A stretch of DNA of 40,965 bases from assembly GCA_002269645.1 (NCBI GenBank), contig NIVC01004597.1:1-40965 (forward strand). The letters are read 5' to 3'. The translations under genes and the position numbers were made by a program. Under the pieces are notes generated by a model, which saw only the letters and a program-made list of their open reading frames with translations, did no database searches and had not been told where the DNA came from. Origin of the DNA: Macrostomum lignano. Lineage: Eukaryota. Each line of letters begins with the position of its first letter. The first letter of the stretch is position 1. Shown here piece by piece: positions 2,017 through 39,756 of the stretch.

Positions 2017-3354
2017 TCAGAGCGCCAACCGACCCCTCCTCTGTCGCAGCCGTCTCCAGGGCAGCCGCCATAGCAGCTGGACGAGCACAGGCCAGGCCAG
2101 CAGCAGCAGCAGCGCCGGTACCGACAAGCCGCCGACACCTCTGCCGCTGAACAGCCACCGCTGAAACCAGCAGTAGAAACTGCCGGAGCTGTCCGACAAT
2201 GCACTTTTATGACTAGTTCGTTCTAGCCTGTCTAGACGGGTGTGAATCTGTCCAAGATCGCCCGACAGACGATCCAGAGCGGCTCGGATGTGCCTCAGTT
2301 GGCCGACTAGTTCGCGCTCAAGTTCGAAGCTCGATGCAGCAGCTGCCGAGCGGCCAGTAGGATCAGGCGGCGGCAGCGGCGGTTGCCATGACAACCCGTT
2401 GCTATTCTCGAAGCTTGAAGCCGAAGGCAGTTGCTGCTGCTGCTGCTGCTGACGACCTTGACGACGCCCAGCTGATTGGTGACCGCCGCCGGCTGCGGCT
2501 GATGCAGATGAAGGTGAAGTCGAAGGCTGCTGACCGCCGGTGACGTCACCCGGCTGATCATCACCAAACGGCTGTACAAAATTGTCGTAGGAATCGCAGA
2601 ATTCGTCATTGTCGCTGCTGCTGCTGCTGCTGCCGCCGCCGCCTCGGTCGGGATGTTCTGGATCGACAGCAGCTGACGCCACTACCGCCGCCGCAGGCCA
2701 AACTGACGTTTCCGACGCTTGTCTCCGGCGCGGATTAGGCTGACTATTTCTTAGAAAGCCATTCCTATTATCATTACTACTACTACTAGTGATTTTAGGC
2801 GGCAACGATTGCGTTAGAAAATTGGAATTGACATCTAAATCTGCGGCGGCGGCTGATTCTGCATCCAAATTCCCGCCGCTTCGACATCGAATCCGATTGG
2901 CTAATAAAAGGCCGAGTTTAACCTCAGACTCCTGATCATCATCATCGTCAACAAGCCTATAGAAGTTGGCAACTTTGTCAATCAGTCCGCTAACAGCTGG
3001 AGACGAGTTTGGCAGGCTTTCAATCACAGTGCGAAGCTGGCGAGAATATTCCAGCATGGCGCGTTCGCGAGGCATGTCGCCTAGCGCGCGCCAGGCATCC
3101 CATTTCATTTTGCCAATCAGATCCCAGAACGCCGGCCTTGGCTGCTGGCAGGGACCGTTACTAGCCTGCTTATATAGAGCATAGAAGCGAAGCATTAAAT
3201 CCGTTGACGGCTTGAAGCCTTGCATAGCAACCGCTTGGCTAGATGAGCCGCGCGGCAGACTGTCAACAACTTGTACAGCGGCCTCGAACTGGGCTAGCGG
3301 ACTGCGAGATGAGGCATTACGATGCTGGGAGTCTGGACTGGTGTCTGCTGACAT
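2017..3354 (-). CDS. ACBD5: Acyl-CoA-binding domain protein, ACBD4/ACBD5-like, tail-anchored, intronless, 445 aa
   Basis: N-terminal ACBP domain (FEAAVQVV..LP, MLRFYALYKQA..GPC..PRPAFWDLIGKMKWDAWRALGDMPRERAMLEY). It also has an acidic FFAT-like motif (SSSDNDEFCDSYD), a coiled coil (LRHIRAALDRL..LDRLE) and a C-terminal TM segment (LLLLLAWPVLVQLLW). ACBD4 versus ACBD5 cannot be resolved by eye. Confidence 0.85.
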   Translation of the reverse strand: MSADTSPDSQHRNASSRSPLAQFEAAVQVVDSLPRGSSSQAVAMQGFKPSTDLMLRFYALYKQASNGPCQQPRPAFWDLIGKMKWDAWRALGDMPRERAMLEYSRQLRTVIESLPNSSPAVSGLIDKVANFYRLVDDDDDQESEVKLGLLLANRIRCRSGGNLDAESAAAADLDVNSNFLTQSLPPKITSSSSNDNRNGFLRNSQPNPRRRQASETSVWPAAAVVASAAVDPEHPDRGGGGSSSSSSDNDEFCDSYDNFVQPFGDDQPGDVTGGQQPSTSPSSASAAAGGGHQSAGRRQGRQQQQQQQLPSASSFENSNGLSWQPPLPPPDPTGRSAAAASSFELERELVGQLRHIRAALDRLSGDLGQIHTRLDRLERTSHKSALSDSSGSFYCWFQRWLFSGRGVGGLSVPALLLLLAWPVLVQLLWRLPWRRLRQRRGRLAL

Positions 3355-3552
3355 GGCTTAATTTACAGCAGAGCTTAATTTCGCACTTCGAATACAGTAC
3401 AGTTATAGGAGCTTTTTTGATTCACTGAACTCACTGATTGACAATCGCTTGAAGATGAGCAGAAATGTGTAATAAAATCATTCAAATTGCTTCAAGATCT
3501 ATGCCGAAATGAGCGATTGGTTGTGAAATGCTATAAAAATTACTTAATATTA

Positions 3553-4650
3553 GGGAGCGATTCTTGCTGAGATTTTTAGGGCGATTCTTGCTGAGATTTT
3601 TAGGGCGATTTTTGCTGAGATTTTTAGGGCGATTCTTACTGAGGTTTTTAGGGCGATTCTTGCTGAGATTTTTAGGGCGATTCTTGCTGAGATTTTAGGG
3701 CGATTCTTGCTGAGATTTTAGGGCGATTCTTGCTGAGATTTTAGGGCGATTCTTGCTGAGATTTATTGGGGCGATTCTTGCTGAGATTTTTAGGGCGATT
3801 CTTGCTGAGATTTTTTTGGGCGATTCTTGCTGAGATTTTTAGGGCGATTCTTGCTGAGATTTTTAGGGCGATTTTTGCTGAGATTTTTAAAGCGATTCTT
3901 ACTGAGGTTTTTAGGGCGATTCTTGCTGAGATTTTTAGGGCGATTCTTGCTGAGATTTTAGGGCGATTCTTGCTGAGATTTTAGGGCGATTCTTGCTGAG
4001 ATTTTAGGGCGATTCTTGCTGAGATTTTAGGGCGATTCTTGCTGAGATTTTTAGGGCGATTCTTGCTGAGATTTTAGGGGCGATTCTTGCTGAGATTTTT
4101 AGGGCGATTCTTGCTGAGATTTTTAGGGCGATTCTTGCTGAGATTTTAGGGGCGATTCTTGCTGAGATTTTTGGGGCGATTCTTGCTGAGATTTTTGGGG
4201 CAATTCTTGCTGAGATTTTTAGGGCGATTCTTGCTGAGATTTTTGGCGCGATTCTTGCTGAGATTTTTGGGGCAATTCTTACTGAGGTTTGGGGCGATTC
4301 TTGCTGAGGTTTGGGGCGATTCTTGCTGAGGTTTGGGGCGATTCTTGCTGAGGTTTGGGGCGATTCTTGCTGAGGTTTGGGGCGATTCTTACTGAGGTTT
4401 GGGGGCGATTCTTACTGAGGTTTGGGGGCGATTCCTACTGAGGTTTGGGGCGATTCTTGCTGAGGTTTGGGGCGATTCTTGCTGAGGTTTGGGGCGATTC
4501 TTGCTGAGGTTTGGGGGCGATTCTTGCTGAGGTTTGGGGGCGATTTTTACTGAGGTTTGGGGCGATTCTTACTGATACTTGGCGGCGATTCTAACTGAGG
4601 TTTGGGGGCGATTCCTACTGAGGTTTGGGGGCAATTCTTGCTGAAGTTTG
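3553..4650. repeat. Tandem minisatellite, 22-24-bp unit
   Basis: GGGCGATTCTTGCTGAGATTTTTA repeats; the unit shifts to GGGGCGATTCTTGCTGAGGTTT after about 4270. Confidence 0.95.
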
Positions 4651-4989
4651 GATGTTATTTAGTTCAAAGTTTGCTGATCCGTCTGCATGTTTTATCCACA
4701 TTACAGGCTGTCTAACCGTACAGATCAAGCAGTTATTTTGTCAACTTCAGTCTGTCTACTATAATTAAATTCAATAAGCAATTAATTAACTAGTTCTGGT
4801 CTCGCCTGGCTGACGTTAACCGTGGATCGGAAATAAGAGTGAAGTGACCCGCTGCAAAAAACTAATCATATTTACATACGAACCAAGTTCTCTACTTATT
4901 CTGATACAATAACGAGCTTATTTTGTTTTCAAAAATCTTTTTTAAAACTCAGAGAACGAAAACTTACTTCCCACGCTATACTTTCTTAG

Positions 4990-5336
4990 TTAGAGTCAGG
5001 GGGGTCTGAGTGCACCTGGCGCACTTTAAGCGACATTGTCACACAACAGGTGAGAGGCATTACTGCCCATTCTGCCGACTCCCCTGAGCAGGCACACAAG
5101 CGCGCGGATACGTACGCAGTCATACGCACAGGCACACACACACACAGGAGTGTACAGCGGCCCTATGCATGTACACCTCACTGTGCCTTGGGGGTTGGGC
5201 CTCAGGGTCGTTAATTGCATGAGCCGAGCCAAGCCGAGATTCCAATTCAGCCCTAAATTAATGTGACTGCACTTGGAATCGAGCCTGGGCCGCTGGCACG
5301 TCCGAGCGCCACGCTAGACTACTGATCTACGAATCC
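4990..5336 (-). mobile_element. Probable tRNA-derived SINE
   Basis: The minus-strand head GGATTCGTAGATCAGTAGTCTAGCGTGG...GGCTCGATTCC has Pol III A-box and B-box-like motifs, followed by a GC-richer body in AT-rich intergenic DNA. The 3' boundary is approximate. Confidence 0.5.
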
Positions 5337-5551
5337 TTCTCACCCTAAAATTGGCTTCAAACTAAATAAATGAAAAGATCATATTGTAATCAAAAAACAA
5401 AATCACTATTAGAGGAAGACGAAATCAATTGTATTTAATAATTCATATTGCACCATATTTAAACTATCAATAAATAGTAATAACAGTATTAACATTCAAA
5501 ATTCAATTCAAAAATGCTAATAACAAACAAACGACCTTCAAGCTAGCTGAT

Positions 5552-8500
5552 TTAGAAATTCAGCCTAGCAACAACGGCAGCAGAGTTGCCATATCGTTGG
5601 CTTAGAAACCCATGGCAACGGATCTGCAGTACAGGAAAGCCGGCAATGCTAGATGATAGATCGTAGCTCTGCCCAGCTAGTGCAGTCTCATTGACCAGAC
5701 ACACTGCCAGACTATTTTTAGCACCTCGTTGCCAACGGGAAATTAGCGTCGTGACATCATCCAATTCGTCAACATATTCAATGCTAGTAGTTAATGTATC
5801 ATCGTTGGCATTAACTAAAAAGGTGAGCCATTCGACTTTGGCACCTTTAGGCAGACCGGTGCAGAGTGCAGGCAGCACTAGACGACTGGAATTTTCCCGA
5901 CAGATCAATCGTTGAAAGCTATCAACACCGGCAGACAGACAGTCGGCATCTAAACCAAAGCAGATAAACAAACTACAGTCGTTACTACCACTACCAAAGC
6001 GTCCTTGGTAACCATTGGCACGGGCTACTCGTAGAGAATGACGCAAGGACAGATCGGCTTGCCACTGAGCACTGGAGCCTAGTGGAATCTCCAGCGTAGC
6101 CGGATCCATAGCAATCTGACCGGATATTAATAACAATCGATGATTAGCTAATGCAATACACTGACTATATGGACCAATGTTGGCCGGGGCCCAGTGACTC
6201 CGGCTGCGCACGTGCATAGCGGCCACTGTTGAGGCATCGGATCCCTTATCCTCTTTTAAGACTAGGATTGAAGCCGACATCACTTCAGACGCTGCTGTTG
6301 CCAGTTCAACGCAAGCTCGCGCTGGCGGCGATCGATAGCCCGGCCGGCTGGCAAAGCCGAGCTCTGGCGAACCATAGACATAGTTGACTAACGCGAATGA
6401 TGACATGTCTGGCACCTGGAATAGTTTTTAATTCAAGGCTTATTGTGCTGTACACCCTGTGTGAGCGAGTATACGATCGTTGTTGCACTGCTTGATGAAA
6501 ACGAAAAACCAAGGAGAACGATTTCTTAGAAATAAAAATTTCTAAGGATAAGCAGTTCTTTCTTTTAATTAAACTACTATGAGTAGTTTTCACTAGCGGA
6601 AATGTTAGCAGTGAAGTTTTGTATGGGCTTTGGGGATTTGGAAAATTAAGAGACAGTTGAGCACTCAATAATAACTATAATACTTGATTACACCAGCTTT
6701 AATGGAAAGATATTGTGCAACCGACAACTCAGTCGCAGCTATTACGCGGCGCATCTGAAGGCTGCGTACGGCTATTCAGTCCAAGGACTGAAGGGTCGCC
6801 ACACACACCCTCAATTACCCCAGTTTATTCTAGCTTACCCCATTTTGAGGCAACTGAAGCAATGCAGAGTTAAGCGTCTTGCTCGATAAGGGCACAAATT
6901 GTTTCTATTGGGTCAAGAATCGAACCCACGACCTTTCTGTCCTGAGTCAGGCGCTCTAGCTACTAAGCTACAAACACCCTTCAATCAATAAACAATGTGT
7001 AAACCAACGACATAAACTATAACTTACTGTCAAAACACACAGCAGAGGTCGCATCTCAGCCGACTGCTCACCTCCAGCAGCCTGGATTGCAGCATTAGCT
7101 TTCGACATCAATAACTTGGCCATCTCAGCAACAGAGATTTCGCCGCTTTGTTCAGCAACTTGAACATTGATAACTGACAATCTCAATGAAGGCAAATCGT
7201 TTGAATCATCATCACAATACAAAGAACCTCCGCGTGAATTGGGATAGTTTTTGGCGTCAATTTGAAATTCTCGTTCGATTACAGCGGGCGATATGCGATC
7301 GATAGACGACGGTTGCTTTGCACTGAACTCTTCGAGACCAGCCTGAGAATAGTAATCAATTTTATCAGAAACAAAGTATATAATAGTAATAGTACAGATT
7401 GAGTCTGCACCAATCACAGCTAAGCTACACTGAAATACTCCCAAATTAGATTGAATCTGCACCAATCACAGCTAAGCTACACTGAGATACTCCCAAATTA
7501 GATTGAATCTGCACCAATCACAGCTAAGCTACACTGAGATACTCCCAAATTAGATTGAATCTGCACCAATCACAGCTAAGCTACACTGAGATACTCCCAA
7601 ATTAGATTGAGTCTGCACCAATCACAGCTAAGCTACACTGAGATACTCCCAAATTAGATTGAATCTGCACCAATCACAGCTAAGCTACACTGCGATACTC
7701 CCAAATTAGATTGAATCTGCACCAATCACAGCTAAGCTACACTGCGATACTCCCAAATTAGATTGAATCTGCACCAATCACAGCTAAGCTACACTGAGAT
7801 ACTCCCAAATTAGATTGAATCTGCACCAATCACAGCTAAGCTACACTGAGATACTCCCAAATTAGATTGAATCTGTACCAATCACAGCTAAGCTACACTG
7901 AGATACTCCCAAATTAGATTGGGTCTGCACCTATTACAGTCAAGCTACACTGAGATACTCCCAAATTAGATTGAATCTGCACCAATCACAGCTAAGCTAC
8001 ACTGAGATACTCCCAAATTAGATTGAATCTGCACCAATCACAGCTAAGCTACACTGAGATACCGTGGATTCAAGCTAAATTAGGAAATACAACCATCAAA
8101 CTTACCTTGGGCTCGCCAAGCCGACAACAGCCAGTCAGCTTCAAATAGCACACCGGAGCAAAAGCATCGTCGCTATGCACAACCACCCGACTATCCGTAC
8201 CCGCCGCAGTCAAGTGCCCGTTGTCAAGCACAATTCGGCCGTGCTTAAACAGAGGACAGTCCAACGCCAGGGTCTCATATTCGCCGCCCTCGCCGCACGG
8301 ACTCAGGCCGCCGGCGGCCGGAGCGGCCAGGCGCACAAGTTCGTCGCGAATGTCGACAAGGCGGCGACCCAGATGGCGCTTTGGCGACAGGCCGTAGGCG
8401 GCCACTTTGATGAGGATGGCGTCTAAGCCGCTGAAGAGCATCTCGTCTAGCAGCTCGGTCTGGAGATGTGTTCACAGCGACACTGAATGGACTCGCAAGA

Positions 8501-8750
8501 CTGGGACAAATGCAATGCAGAGAAATGCACAGATAGAAGCCGATAGTGCGCATAACAAGCAAACTAATGTACATCTACAGCGCAGATGCATCACAGACAG
8601 ACTGATAAAAACTAAACAGACTAAAGCAGACAAGACAAATATTTTGTGACGGAGACTAAGACAGATAGACAGACAGACGGACAGATAGACAGACAGATAG
8701 GCAGACAGACATACATACAGAAAGACAGACAGACAGACAGACATTCAGAA

Positions 8751-8807
<57 letters not shown>

Positions 8808-9984
8808 CAGAAAGACAGGCAGACAGACATACAGAAAGACAGACAGATAGACAGACAGACGGACACAAAAACCGACAAACAAAGACAGGCAGACAGCTAG
8901 AGACAGACAAACAAACAAGCAAAAACAGACAGACATACACACAAACATATATATATTAACTGGCAGAGAGAGACAAAAACAGACAACAAAACAGACAGAA
9001 AATTGAGGAAAAACAGAGAAAAACAGAAAAAAAGCAGACCTGATCCCGACGCCACAGAAAGGCGAGCACCTGCAGGTCGAGCCGCTCGCACACGGACTCA
9101 ACCCGGACCCGCTGGTAATTAGACAGAATGGCCCCAACTGAAACGGCTTGAAGGCCAGGGATGCCGGCTTTCACCTCGGCCAGGAGTTTATAGAGGTCTT
9201 CGACTTCGTCCTCGCTGTCGCCCGAATTGCTGGAGGACTGTCAAAGTGTTTTAAAGTTAGTGACCTTACGGAAATGGAACTCACTGAATGACCTAAGGGA
9301 AATGGCACTCACTAAATGACCCAAGGGAAATGGCACTCACTAAATGACCCAAGGGAAATGGCACTCCCTAAATGACCTTAGAGAAATGGCACTCACTAAA
9401 TGATCTAAGGGAAATGGCACTCACTAAATGATCTAAGGGAAATGGCACTCACTAAATGACCCAAGGGAAATGGCACTCACTAAATGACCTAAGGGAAATG
9501 GCACTCACTAAATGACCTAAGGAAAATGGCACTCAGTGAATGAGCTTAGGGAGATGGCAGTCACTGAATGACCATATGGAAATGGCGCTTACTAATGAAG
9601 AATATGATGAGGTAAATTAATACACTTAAATTGACACAGTATAGAGAATGCAGGCATTTAAGTCTGTAAAAGACAAAATACTAAAGCAAACTCCAGTTAT
9701 TAAACAATTCTAAAGCCAGACAGAGCACTTACAGCATAGTGATCGGCAGAACCAGTATCCCTAGACTCGCCCACAATAGGCCGAGTATACAGTGGCAAAC
9801 CAGTAGCTTTAGCATAGAGTGCCACAGCCTCGCTGCCAACTGTTTGATACATAAAGCTATCCATTTCTGCTCCACTAGGTGGATAGAGATGAGCTAATGC
9901 AACAATCTGGTGACCAGATCTGACACATTCAATCATATTGTAGCAGCTATCTTTGCCACCACTAACCAAACCAACAACTTTCAT
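5552..9984 (-). CDS. DPH6: Diphthine--ammonia ligase with C-terminal RidA/YjgF-like domains; 5 exons, about 660 aa
   Basis: Exons 9733-9984, 9040-9237, 8106-8459, 7028-7342 and 5552-6415, all with GT-AG phase-0 junctions (1983 nt). Motifs: MKVVGLVSGGKDSCYNM, DSFMYQTVG, EDEVEDLYKLL, GAILSNYQRVRVESVC, CGEGGEYETLALDCPLF, VPDMSSFALVNYVY and HVRSRSHWAPANIGPYSQ. Confidence 0.92.
6715..6978 (-). mobile_element. tRNA-derived SINE with CORE-like segment, in DPH6 intron 4
   Basis: Minus strand: A box TAGCTTAGTAG and B box GGTTCGATTC, then GAGCAAGACGCTTAACTCTGCATTGCTTCAGTTGCCTCAAAATGGGG, which resembles the MIR/CORE-SINE core. Confidence 0.6.
7397..8060. repeat. 52-bp tandem repeat, about 13 copies, in DPH6 intron 3
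   Basis: Unit GATTGAATCTGCACCAATCACAGCTAAGCTACACTGAGATACTCCCAAATTA; for example, starts at 7449 and 7501. Confidence 0.95.
8648..9030. repeat. (GACA)n-type microsatellite, in DPH6 intron 2
   Basis: Runs of GACA/GATA/CAGA. Confidence 0.95.
9268..9595. repeat. 28-bp tandem repeat, about 11 copies, in DPH6 intron 1
   Basis: Unit GGAAATGGCACTCACTAAATGACCYAAG; period 28 (9301 and 9329). Confidence 0.9.
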
Positions 9985-35613: not shown

Positions 35614-36360
35614 AGGAGGATTGTTAGATGTTCAAAAAGGATTAACAAGCTTACCACCAATCTTTACTACTGGAAGGTATACAGGGGAACTACACCTACC
35701 ATCAATGAACTTCACAGGTTAACCCGTGGCCTGAGTGAGGAAGAATGTCCTTGCTAGTCACTATTTGTGGCGACATCTCCAAATTGCGTGAAACCCGTCA
35801 TACAGCTTCAAGTACCACTTCAATTGAGAAATCTTTTGAAGGAACAGAGGTAACTCCTCTTCCCAAAGGTAAAAGCTTGAAGACACGGTGGCAATGCGCA
35901 GCCAAGCTCCTAAGTATTTTAAATATAAGGAGAAGGTTCAGAGAGCAGACGGAGATGGGCGGTAATTATCGCCGCTTAAGGTGTGCTCCAGCCTCTTTCG
36001 AAAGATTGAGGGTAAACTACCCGGCACTCGCTTAGATTTGAGATTAAATCCTGACAATACTCCAAAAGCCGATTCAATTCCATAAATGGATTGATTGGTT
36101 AGCATACTATCATGACTTAGCATACAGAGATGCTGATAAGAACCACCCGAGGAAGCATTAAGATTAAAACATGAAGCCGATCAAAAAATGATTCAAGGAT
36201 TAGATAACTTGCAGGGATTATCGGTAGGTCAAAAATTAACTAGGTGGATGGTTAAAAAGATTTTGCAGTCTAAAGTTAAATTTGGTTTGGGAATTAATTA
36301 TAATCAACATGGAAATAATTGTGTTGAGTGTTTGTTGTTAAGTGGCGGGGTTAAGTTCTG
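35573..36360 (+). CDS. Parvovirus-type phospholipase A2 (PLA2X), interrupted by a group I intron; probably continues into the integrase
   Basis: Exon 1 (35573-35719) ends GELHLPSMNFTG. Exon 2 (from 36020) reads PGTRLDLRLN...ID..AYYHDLAY...HEAD..M...K.KFGLG, giving the Ca-loop GPG and catalytic HD. Two small frameshifts occur at about 36082 and 36148. Confidence 0.88.
35720..36019 (+). ncRNA. Group I intron (ribozyme), subgroup IC1, 300 nt, no internal ORF
   Basis: P1: exon CAGGU with IGS GCCUG (35729-33), U.G at the splice site. P2: 35735-41/35748-54. P2.1: 35757-61/35767-71. P3: CAUCUCC 35774-80/GGAGAUG 35951-57. P4: UUGCGU 35784-89/GCGCAG 35896-901. P5abc with a GAAA loop. P7: GAGAGCA 35941-47/UGCUCC 35984-89. 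P8: GGCGGU/AUCGCC. P9 has a GAAA tetraloop. P9.0: AG 35990-91/CU 36017-18. Confidence 0.93.
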
Positions 36361-37150
36361 ATGAGGCAAAGATTCTTCATAAAGAATATCGAAAACCTAA
36401 ATTTTATAGAAAAATCATGAACTTCAAAAAGAATGAAATTTGGTATGCTGATTTAATGTCGATGCCGAACGAGAGGATATAAATATATCTTAACCATATT
36501 AGATGGTTTTACTCGATACGCGTGGGCTGTTCCTTTAAATCCAAAAAGGAGAGGAGGTTGCTGCTGCTTTTAGAAGTCTTGGAGAAAAAAGCGAACGTTG
36601 TGTGTTGACGAAGGAAAAGAATTTTACAATCCTCATATGTATAAATTATATCATTTTGAAAAAGGACAAGAAAGGAAAAAAGACGCGAATGGGGAGTATA
36701 TTAATAAAATTTATTCTATTTATGGAGAGAGTAAAAACGCATTAATAGAAAGATTTAATCGAACTTTAGGTAAGAAATTGTGGTTTCAGTTTAGTCTTAA
36801 TGGTAACCAAAAATGGGTAAAAATATTACCAGACGTTGTAAAGATTATAACAATTCATATCATTCGGCGATAAAGATGGCTCCTCAACAAGCTTATAACA
36901 ATCCTGAAAACGTTAGGGTTACTTTTGGAGATTTGAAAAAAATAAAAAAAATCTTTTAAGGTTGGTGATTCTGTTTATATCTATAAATGGAAAGATAAGT
37001 TTGAAAAAGGAAGAAAAGGATATTGGAAGATAAGTGAGAAATTTACTATCAGTAAAGTTTTAAATACCAATCCTACAACCTATATAATTGCTGATAAGGA
37101 CGGTGAAGAAATATTGGGTTCTTTTATGAGAACCAGATAATATCTGCGAA
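36345..37150 (+). CDS. int: Retroviral-like (rve) DDE integrase, with multiple frameshifts
   Basis: AKILHK..RK, WYADL (D), YILTILDGFTRYAWAVPL, CVDEGKEFYN (D), KNALIERFNRTL (E), YNNSYHSAIKMAP, and FKVGD...FEKG..GYW..EKFTI. Confidence 0.9.
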
Positions 37151-37331
37151 CTAAGTTCGAAACAGTTACTTAGACAACATGGTAGTAAATTTTTTATAAC
37201 AAACAAAAACAATATTATTACTATAATTGTTACTAATATTATTATTGACATTTGTTCAACTGTTATCAAACTTAAATTTTCATTAAGTTCATTAATTGGA
37301 CATTTCCGATGTAGGAATAGTTTACCTTCAT
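37130..37331 (-). CDS. Small single-pass membrane protein (accessory), probably frameshifted at the N-terminus
   Basis: Hydrophobic stretch MSIIILVTIIVIILFLFVI followed by K and Cys residues; AAAAATG at about 37331. Confidence 0.35.
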
Positions 37332-37453
37332 TTTTTTATATATATTTTTCACAATAAATGTCGTTTCTGTTATAGAATAATAGTTCATTTTTTAAATATT
37401 TTTTTCACATAAAAATTTCACTTTCATTCTCTGAATCACTGGTTTCATATGAA

Positions 37454-37750
37454 CTATAGAATCGAATCACTGGTTTCATATGAACTATTTGTTGATTCGG
37501 AATCTGTTGATCTAACCTCCCAATCATCCGAATTTAAATAATCTCCAAGTTGAAATATTAACTCACCCTCTTGTTCTAAATCATACATCTCATCTAGCTC
37601 TAATGGATAAAGTTTTAGGTCGTGCTTGTCGTCATATTTTAAATAAACTTCATCAATTATTCCATTCAAAATATGTTGTTTTATTATCTCTGCATTTTTA
37701 GCAACAGTCTCAAAAGTATCACTAACAGAAAAGGTGTAAACTCGGGTCAT
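37454..37750 (-). CDS. Acidic hypothetical protein (98 aa) next to the right TIR
   Basis: Clean ORF with TAAAAATG start context. Confidence 0.55.
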   Translation of the reverse strand: MTRVYTFSVSDTFETVAKNAEIIKQHILNGIIDEVYLKYDDKHDLKLYPLELDEMYDLEQEGELIFQLGDYLNSDDWEVRSTDSESTNSSYETSDSIL

Positions 37751-37767
37751 TTTTAGTAACAGAAAAA

Positions 37768-38073
37768 GACCCTTCGCGCCTGCGGCGCGGGCAAGGGGTT
37801 ATAGAGTAGTAGTATAGAAAAAGACGCTTCTAGATCAGACCTTATTTTAATGACCGTTTGTAAGGTCTTAAGAGGGGGGACGCGAGGGGGTGTTGGGGAG
37901 TGTTTGGAAGTGTTGGGAAGTGATTTTTATTGTTAGGGGTGATTATGGGTGATTAGATGTGTTAAGGGTGTTTAGATGTGTTTTTTTATTTACCCCCGTG
38001 TCCCCCCTCTAGACCCTTAAAACGGTCATTAAAAAAGTGCTCTGGGTCTAGAAGCGTCTTTTTCTATACTACT
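37768..38073 (-). repeat. Right TIR of the Polinton
   Basis: Ends ...GAAGCGTCTTTTTCTATACTACT at 38073. Confidence 0.93.
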
Positions 38074-38171
38074 ATCGGCCGAGGTTTTTGCTTTTTTATT
38101 CGATGCTTTCAAGTATCTGTTGAAAGACTTTCGTGAATGTGCTTCAGTGCAGTTCTTGAAGGCAATGTCAA

Positions 38172-38831: not shown

Positions 38832-39756
38832 CTAGGCAGCTGCAGAACGAGTCCAAGCACACCGAAATAAAGAACATGAGAGGAAGAAGTTGTGCGCTGA
38901 ATTCAGCGTCAATAGCAGGTCGGTGACCTCGCGGGCGATCCGCTGTGCGTCTGTGCTGACCTCGTGATAGCCGAGGCCGTACAGAGTCATGGCCGCGTCG
39001 GGCAGGGCGAACACTATGAAGATGCAGATCACGATGATGAGCATGAGGGTGATGCGGTTCCGTGCAGCCAGTCGCCTGTTCGCCCTGGTCCGTCGCACGT
39101 TGACGATGATGCAGGCGTTCAGCACGATCAACAGCGCCAGAGGGCGATGCAGCGGAAGCTGGACTGGAAAATTGAATAGGCCCCGGCGAAGTGATTCTTC
39201 CACAGGTCCGTCACGTTCAAAGTGTAGCCACCGTCAATCGCTGGCACCTTGCGGTAGCGCAGGCCGATTGGCACGGTGAGCAGCAGGACGGTCAGGCCGA
39301 TCACTAGGCACGCCGTAGTCGCCTTGGCAACGGTGAGACGCCGCGACACTCCGTCGGATACACAATCATTAGGAAGCGTTCGAAAGCGACTGCCACGGTC
39401 ATCCAGGCTGCCACAGAGGAAGAATACTGCGACAGGAAGTAGCCGAACTGGTAGTAGTTGACGTAGATAAAACTGTCGCCACCGACGGTGAAGTACTTGC
39501 ACAGTACGCTGGCGGTGTACATGAGATCGTTGATCAGCTTGATGAGGTCTCCGAATGCTAGCACCAGCAGGTAGATGTTAGTTGAAGTTCTCATCTTGGG
39601 CTTGACGAACACCATCAGGCAGAGAGTGTTGCCGGCGATGCCCAGTAGGCAGGCCAGCGGCATCAGGCCCGTGCCGATCACCAGCTGCACTATGGAATAG
39701 GCGCTGCTCTCGTCGCCATTGTCCGAGCTTCTGTTACTGTCGATCGGTGCCAGCAT
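38832..39756 (-). CDS. Rhodopsin-class peptide GPCR (FMRFamide-receptor-like), intronless, with two apparent frameshifts
   Basis: GIAGNTLCLMVF...MRTSTNIYLLVLAFGDL, AWMTVAVAFERF..IVYP, TLMLIIVICIFIVFALP and LLTLNSAHNFFL lie in three successive frames. Confidence 0.8.

Follow-up and report, generated by a model that had tools for sequence, protein, structure and literature searches.

A group I intron, probably mobile, in the PLA2-integrase gene of Polintons from the flatworm Macrostomum lignano

The stretch of DNA analysed here (the window; 40,965 nucleotides of Macrostomum lignano contig NIVC01004597.1) carries an insert in a Polinton PLA2 gene that had been proposed, from the letters alone, to be a self-splicing group I intron. 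Does a ribozyme intron operate in a nuclear mRNA of an animal, and what has kept it at this position? In the accessible part of a review, nuclear group I introns are confined to the rRNA genes of microbial eukaryotes (PMC3679873), whereas more than 150 copies sit in a protein gene of this flatworm. The portion available of a second paper gives non-bilaterians and five sharks as the only animals with group I introns (PMC10964413). We read the insert as one of a family of mobile group I introns in flatworm Polintons, spread by nuclease-driven homing and masking a GGNCC site that the gene cannot avoid, and we give this reading as a whole a probability of about 0.65.

Structure and boundaries of the intron

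The insert lies at 35720..36019 on the + strand and is 300 nt long, without an ORF of its own (type A). It had been described as a GC-richer block at an exact codon junction, and this was borne out: its GC content is 0.457, whereas the exons on either side have 0.39 and 0.36, and natural intron-less alleles are contiguous at that point. A focused Rfam scan matched the group I model RF00028 at 61.9 bits (E 2.4e-15; 35711-36010), above the gathering score of 50, in agreement with the class originally assigned, and sibling introns scored 50.7-85.2 bits. The scan of the whole window with fast filters missed the intron.

All core helices from P1 to P9 could be drawn with standard pairs, and the four P, Q, R and S motifs that had been quoted occur once each, at 35781, 35893, 35936 and 35976. 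In P1 (35715..35733, +) the last 5 exon bases pair with the internal guide sequence; the U.G expected at the 5' splice site was present in 24 of 24 haplotypes, with 99% of cells paired. P2 and P2.1 follow (35734..35771, +), with four P2 pairs changed on both sides among copies. The 5' strand of P3, P4, P5/P5abc and P6 occupy 35774..35937 (+), where the drawn helices show covariation. P7 (35941-35947 with 35984-35989) encloses the 3' strand of P3 and P8 (35941..35989, +) and holds the G-binding G-C pair; P9.0, the P9 hairpin and the terminal nucleotide A complete the intron (35990..36019, +). The window intron thus contains the P3-P7 pseudoknot core, P4-P6 and the G-binding pair. P10 pairs at 4 of 5 positions, as had been claimed; this was read directly from the sequence.

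From 98 distinct cores we selected 46 for alignment, of which 13 belong to the flatworm genome and 33 to viral contigs. Here 93% of cells were paired and 33 of 52 pairs had changed on both sides, against 39-51% pairing for slid partners, a comparison that favours the drawn pairing over the slid controls because the structure was drawn on the window sequence. P7 was paired in 100% of the 46 sequences, two of its pairs being swapped on both sides in 17 of them. Within the genome itself, 24 of 30 haplotypes under 312 nt had 98% of cells paired, and two-sided changes were found in 8 of 74 pairs. The folding z of the intron was -2.85.

P2, P2.1 and a P5abc with an A-rich bulge are features of subgroup IC1, and all are present in the window intron. 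The core and these elements are IC1-like, and the assignment to IC1 made in the original prediction is putative; the Tetrahymena-type P9.1/P9.2 are absent, with just 30 nt between P7 and the intron end.

The intron ends are fixed by the natural intron-less alleles (3 close, 19 divergent) and by P9.0. The terminal G of group I introns is near-universal, and the window copy ends in A; among the 100 copies listed, the final base was A in 77 and G in 23 (hand count). Accepted exceptions to the terminal G exist, and we take the terminal A to mark a variant and not exclusion from the group I introns. All 54 of the 54 A-ending loci have an intact P9.0, and the splice site was accordingly placed there.

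The ribozyme would excise itself from the transcript by two guanosine-dependent transesterifications, most copies having A where the terminal G would stand, and we consider this self-removal very likely. What counts against it is that a terminal A should slow exon ligation. It could be that only the G-ending introns splice and that the A-ending majority, the window copy included, is dead, with integrase made from a downstream start or the elements moved in trans; the near-universality of the terminal G would fit this, as would internal Met codons in exon 2 and the frameshift of the window copy described below. However, the A-ending majority spans haplotypes 94-100% alike, and besides P9.0 it has kept exon 1 open in 52 of 54 loci. 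The pN/pS of exon 1 was 0.31 across 20 haplotypes of A-ending copies; this exon is under purifying selection, although part of the divergence may be older than the intron. A precedent for splicing without a terminal G is also found in the hexacoral mitochondrial intron ND5-717, likewise a group I intron of an animal protein gene, whose exons are ligated in vivo; according to the part of the paper accessible to us it differs in being mitochondrial, non-bilaterian, obligatory and vertically inherited (PMC6545197). We consider a dead majority unlikely, and splicing by the ribozyme remains our preferred reading.

Removal by the spliceosome, or read-through of the insert, appears extremely improbable. 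Read-through would be favoured by a length that is a multiple of three (300 nt in the window, 303 in most siblings), but in 22 of 30 loci the intron opens with a stop codon, and stops occur in every frame across the intron. As for the spliceosome, none of the 13 in-frame GT/GC-AG pairs keeps both an open frame and both motifs, and the junction 35719/36020 has no GT-AG ends. No joint skipping the intron was seen in four contig-level runs (three guessed to be RNA), where contigs show presence and not absence, so that this weighs for neither side; the one joint listed there is unrelated to the intron.

The host element and the interrupted gene

The insert had been assigned to an animal Polinton, and we found the element at 20303..38074 (no strand assigned). 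It is 17,772 bp long, within the 15-25 kb range of Polintons, and is bounded by terminal inverted repeats (20303-20611 and 37768-38074) that are 94-96% complementary. A pPolB-like gene (23797-26227) was recognized through atlas look-alikes at 0.97, the polymerase itself having no Pfam, PHROG or PDB match. The A32 ATPase (32050-32781) matched above cut-off; the capsid-like pieces (32787-34299) stayed under the recognition threshold and are given as a lead, and a Polinton protease is presumed from a motif. The polymerase (22265-26227) and capsid-like (32787-34299) genes of the window copy are each broken across several frames.

The rve integrase was matched at 32.7 bits in a sibling copy, and in one intron-less relative the PLA2 and rve families were both above cut-off, so that the interrupted gene is a PLA2-integrase fusion. 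Its exon 1 (35573..35719, +) has 49 codons, the last being the Gly of the calcium-binding loop; exon 2 (36020..37165, +, end approximate) holds the remaining PLA2 domain and the rve integrase. Removal of the insert had been said to restore the PLA2 loop. The intron-less alleles do show this junction; exon 2 of the window copy, however, is frameshifted and closes after 21 codons, where many siblings have 382 open codons, so that removing the intron alone would not yield a whole protein from this copy. At the small gaps of the window copy the sequencing runs mostly show the sibling state, and some of its frame breaks may be assembly errors. Polinton integrase genes may be mis-annotated as truncated. 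PLA2-like genes are described in the accessible part of the adintovirus paper, without mention of a group I intron (PMC8502044).

Upstream of exon 1 is a variable nuclease slot. In the window it is occupied by a free-standing endonuclease VII/HNH-like ORF (35056..35610, +), which matches phrog_1035 at E 0.009, and at E 7e-8 in a sibling; in other copies an Eco47II-like gene takes its place.

The animal origin that had been proposed is supported by a host gene on the same contig with 97% identity to an NCBI protein labelled Macrostomum lignano. That the elements come from a protist or another co-sequenced organism, or that the insert is an assembly artefact, is very improbable. Such a source would fit the low GC of the element (~0.28-0.38, host genes ~0.45), the lack of a shared target-site duplication at the two element ends of the window (20303, 38074) and the group I introns of protist Polinton-like viruses, as reported in the accessible part of PMC12220804. 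But contigs bearing copies reach 1.5 Mb, and 28 of 42 distinct outer flanks have a 6-bp reverse-complement partner (hand count; fewer than 1 expected). The flanks were taken from 52 terminal-repeat matches, two of them inner repeats, with a search pattern that left out flanks beginning with C. Moreover, more than half of the query words were present in 19 sequencing runs from 7 studies, all under a single organism label, and intron pieces were found in all four contig-level runs examined. The Polinton family is integrated in the host genome.

The flank partners lie on other contigs. Where two ends stand on one contig at element distance, they mismatched in 3 of 3 cases (G000 C92, C4011, C4661 and C5215 are among the flank contigs). 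The window contig therefore probably joins the flanks of two insertion sites in the same host. Of the contaminant or chimera that had been envisaged as refuting the prediction, a probable mis-join is thus what was found, in a contig that is not a contaminant. In general, either the assembly seems to have joined contigs wrongly over the 18-kb repeat or there is recombination between copies.

The host side of the window (2017-9984, -; 16742-18761, +; 39304-39756, -) contains an ACBP-domain gene, an L-PSP-like gene, diphthamide synthase exons and a rhodopsin-family GPCR. Host-side features further include the remnant of a MULE transposase, which has a Pro/Ala tandem repeat.

Alleles, nuclease and target site

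The original prediction had called for a survey of alleles with and without the intron, and both occur. Out of 150 protein matches, 100 loci were fetched and 9 duplicates dropped; the 91 unique loci read comprise 63 with the window-type intron, 10 with a second type, 1 with a third type and 17 without intron. Short exact patterns, which give lower bounds, placed at least 106 copies of the window type, at least 22 of the second type and at least 22 intron-less alleles in the genome. The copies are kin and their contigs look mis-joined across the repeat, so these counts do not represent independent events. Three intron-less alleles are 93-97% identical in amino acids and 19 belong to a family of ~60% identity; in all of them the exons directly adjoin each other at the predicted junction. 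Since occupied, empty and nuclease-bearing alleles occur together in the genome of a laboratory animal, ribozyme function in an animal nuclear mRNA becomes testable, and so does the tolerance of a terminal A.

The second type (type B; L061-L069, L096) uses the same 5' splice site and has P2, P2.1 and P5abc in common with the window type. Its core is different, and we take it to be IE-like; exon and guide sequence change together in P1. At its 3' end we observed no plain Gly|Pro junction, and the in-frame ends preceded by G alter or shorten the loop. One set of type B loci scored 38.8-42.9 bits with RF00028, under the gathering score. Among type A variants, the L033 group and L077 measure 332-337 nt: the former has an extra 30-nt insert in the P5c/P5a region, also present in the nuclease-bearing type C, and the latter a different insert near P5. 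L033 and L096 gave no RF00028 match at E 0.01 in the multi-locus scan. At L089:1-900, a second exon 1 and an intron-like fragment stand just upstream of an intact intron-less gene, as a tandem remnant.

The third type (type C) was read at L088. It is a complete intron of 880 nt at the same junction, ending in G, and its 3' part scores 85.2 bits. A nuclease ORF of 228 codons lies in P2.1, where an 11-bp stem flanks it with its two arms, and continues into the core. The protein matches the Eco47II family PF09553 at 26.2 bits, marginally above the cut-off of 25.9. Its structural model has a pLDDT of 91.7, and the best fold match was EcoO109I (E 1.4e-4) at 13-14% sequence identity. From motif and fold we predict an Eco47II-like PD-(D/E)xK nuclease, with a correspondingly predicted activity. 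No PDB sequence match was found under E 0.09, and the nuclease as a single query found no relative in the viral contigs.

In the divergent family, 32 of 53 exon-1 ends are followed by a nuclease ORF 80-111 nt downstream (hand count), 19 are intron-less without such an ORF and 2 were unclassified; L088 is the one of the 32 read whole, and the placement in P2.1 is taken from it. Across the fetched set, the nuclease was present in 19 of 74 intron-bearing and in none of 17 intron-less loci. In the window's own family, 18 of 73 intron-bearing loci and none of the 3 intron-less ones have a 62-66% identical nuclease as a free-standing gene upstream of exon 1. The window intron is best read, from these comparisons, as a nuclease-less derivative of a form with an Eco47II-like PD-(D/E)xK gene in the P2.1 loop; its core is 78% identical to that of the nuclease-bearing type. 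The nuclease would suggest a route from restriction enzyme to intron mobility.

We also considered the 96-codon ORF inside the window intron (35745..36035, +) as a gene, and rejected it, as 28 of 29 other loci sampled have an extra base within it. Its translation matches the C-terminal tails of nuclease records P0142 and P0143 (E 3e-10 and 1e-10), and by sequence comparison it is the frame that nucleases borne by introns follow when their reading continues into the ribozyme core. Nine of 161 nuclease homologue records (P0139-P0143, P0147, P0149, P0152, P0153) end in a translated group I core, which indicates that the nuclease-in-intron form exists in other assemblies.

The window copy and all three close intron-less alleles have the endonuclease VII-like ORF in the upstream slot and no Eco47II-like ORF, which counts against our reading. 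Collaborative homing by this endonuclease VII-like ORF was likewise unsupported, since it is present in all three close intron-less alleles.

EcoO109I recognizes RGGNCCY. Gly-Pro codons always spell GGNCC, and the intron interrupts precisely such a site. According to the accessible part of the relevant paper, Eco47II homologues cut GGNCC (PMC10305163). We observed no GGNCC in the 17,772-bp element, where 20.3 +/- 4.7 were expected, and it is the most depleted of 256 such patterns. With proteins kept, the expectation falls to 3.8 (5 of 300 shuffles as low), and with codons reordered it is 10.4 (0 of 300). Gly-Pro itself is absent from the element ORFs, against 8.4 expected. Next in depletion within the element comes CCNGG (0.34).

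Only 5 of 85 close-family loci contain GGNCC, three of them intron-less with the site at the junction and two elsewhere. The junction site was present in 17 of 17 intron-less loci; this is not independent evidence, since it is forced by the codons. The intron-less relatives P0005, P0010, P0023 and P0028 have a residue other than Pro following the loop Gly, a replacement that would likewise abolish GGNCC.

The mechanism that we propose is as follows. A mobile group I intron family would have colonised the Gly|Pro junction in the PLA2 calcium loop of the flatworm PLA2-integrase gene, and the window intron would have arisen by loss of the nuclease. GGNCC is the predicted cleavage site of the nuclease. 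The elements appear to have purged this site everywhere, and intron-less alleles would retain one exactly at the insertion point because Gly-Pro codons cannot avoid it. Cutting there would lead to the intron being copied in by break repair (homing), or to an intron-less competitor being disabled, while the intron would mask the site in its carrier. That the nuclease cuts empty alleles at or around GGNCC and so drives homing or interference we regard as likely. It would imply that animal Polintons meet and compete as replicating viruses. The full picture of a selfish module, with working and mostly A-ending group I ribozymes in bilaterian endogenous-virus mRNAs, a restriction-type enzyme cutting GGNCC, a virus purged of the site and an intron as the antidote, has about even odds in our judgement.

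The marginal Pfam score and the low identity to EcoO109I count against this mechanism, and so does a second GGNCC near the junction, present in 12 of the 14 intron-less loci of the divergent family. The pattern is scarce in other places too. In giant-virus loci it was at 0.37 and 0.65 of expectation, ranking first or second in depletion, and in other integrase loci at 0.82, ranking 8, with none in 7 of 57 long ones; the left host flank was at 0.49 (others 1.37). The intron might then splice while its nuclease is a long-site homing enzyme or a passenger, the lack of GGNCC coming from outside pressure, such as giant-virus restriction systems or general composition, and the intron giving no protection. 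The giant-virus relatives of the nuclease would suit a passenger: L336-L366, 30-39% identical, are free-standing, and a motif scan found no intron motifs in 31 of 31 loci. So would the viral contig L108 (see below), with an intron at the same site and a GIY-YIG gene in place of this nuclease. Yet within the element the depletion is complete and extends to the proteins, and family, fold and insertion site all indicate the same motif. We judge the passenger or long-site nuclease to be improbable and retain homing or interference through GGNCC.

Three of the 31 giant-virus nuclease loci lie near an apparent cytosine methyltransferase; these loci are GGNCC-poor (0.37 of expected). No methyltransferase was seen in the window element. 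A four-base cutter without a methylase would damage host DNA, so either the real site is longer or expression is confined; a longer site, or late and confined expression, are the simplest guesses as to how the host escapes.

Relatives among known introns

IC1 introns had been described at the outset as typical of nuclear rDNA in microbial eukaryotes. The nearest relatives among the sampled introns, a sample of viral sequences outside which rDNA introns lie, appear by sequence to be giant-virus introns. The compensatory P7 variant, which has 6 of 6 Watson-Crick pairs and, as had been described, retains the G-C pair, is not unique to the flatworm: it occurs in 7 IMG/VR contigs (L101-L107) with giant-virus-type capsid and RPB1 genes, at two places on the tree. 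One of these introns, in L106, likewise seems to have A as its last base. Combined with a canonical P7, the Q-R region had 117 matching stretches. In the tree, the flatworm cores fall on one side of a branch (92/95), deeper forks being open; it is unrooted and its other rows are all viral, with no rDNA intron, so that it does not place the donor. The window core is at most 67% identical to sampled viral cores.

Among published systems, the closest in setting are group I introns of Polinton-like viruses in the protists Rhodomonas lacustris, Paulinella micropora and Desmodesmus armatus. They too match RF00028, measure ~300-380 nt and sit in protein genes of integrated Polinton-type elements; in the accessible part of that report their hosts are unicellular, the gene, a neighbour of the capsid gene, encodes a short protein, and neither a nuclease borne by the intron nor a mechanism is given (PMC12220804). 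The flatworm case, in contrast, has a bilaterian host, a PLA2-integrase gene, and nuclease-bearing and intron-less alleles that coexist. The earlier impression that such an intron might be unreported thus stands for animals in the literature searched, but not for Polinton-type elements. We found no report of group I introns in animal nuclear protein genes, nor of an Eco47II-like intron nuclease, in a search that left subscription journals largely outside. New here are the animal nuclear host, the terminal A and the nuclease family. The terminal A, the PLA2-integrase fusion, the exon 2 frameshift, the nuclease-bearing form and the avoidance of GGNCC had been missed by the original prediction.

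In the portion available of the Bodo saltans virus paper, the polr2a/b introns resemble ours in having nuclease-bearing parents, ORF-less offspring and a proposed interference with intron-less competitors; they differ in their HNH or GIY-YIG nucleases and protist host, with no genome-wide avoidance of a short site described there (PMC5871332). Such interference has been demonstrated for phage PhiPA3, where the nuclease targets the intron-less allele of a competitor, as the accessible part of that study states (PMC11620839). In collaborative homing, likewise from a partial source, a nuclease inside or beside the intron is aimed at the intron-less allele (PMC3984707). Both are bacteriophage systems with HNH-type enzymes, whereas the flatworm has a restriction-enzyme-family protein in a eukaryotic element. 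With the type II restriction endonucleases Eco47II and EcoO109I this protein shares the PF09553 match, the PD-(D/E)xK motif and fold, and GGNCC; unlike in those systems, protection in the flatworm element apparently consists of site loss and intron insertion, and the nuclease activity is predicted. The nuclear rDNA IC1/IE introns are alike in core motifs, P2/P2.1 and P5abc, and loss of their homing endonuclease gene leaves all-ribozyme introns, as given in the available part of the review (PMC3679873); the flatworm intron differs in its place in a protein gene of an animal endogenous virus, in having no P9.1/P9.2 and in its mostly A-ending copies.

Read-through proteins and one IMG/VR contig suggest, at the level of sequence, that the same site is occupied in other Polinton lineages. 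Viral and metagenome collections supplied 110 integrase loci; a PLA2 segment was present in 39, and one of these (L108) had an insert in it. This Polinton-like contig (L108:2699-3000; IMGVR_UViG_3300027939_000003) carries at the same Gly|Pro junction an insert of 302 nt whose last base is G, and upstream of it lies a free-standing GIY-YIG gene; the insert did not reach E 0.01 with RF00028 and is group I-like by motifs and pairing. In a Polinton lineage of ~46% protein identity (P0128, P0022, P0026, P0034 and cluster members), proteins start at the Pro or read through a canonical core. P0128, known like its lineage from proteins only, continues across a canonical group I core to arrive at the same Pro, and has intact siblings in P0007 and P0129.
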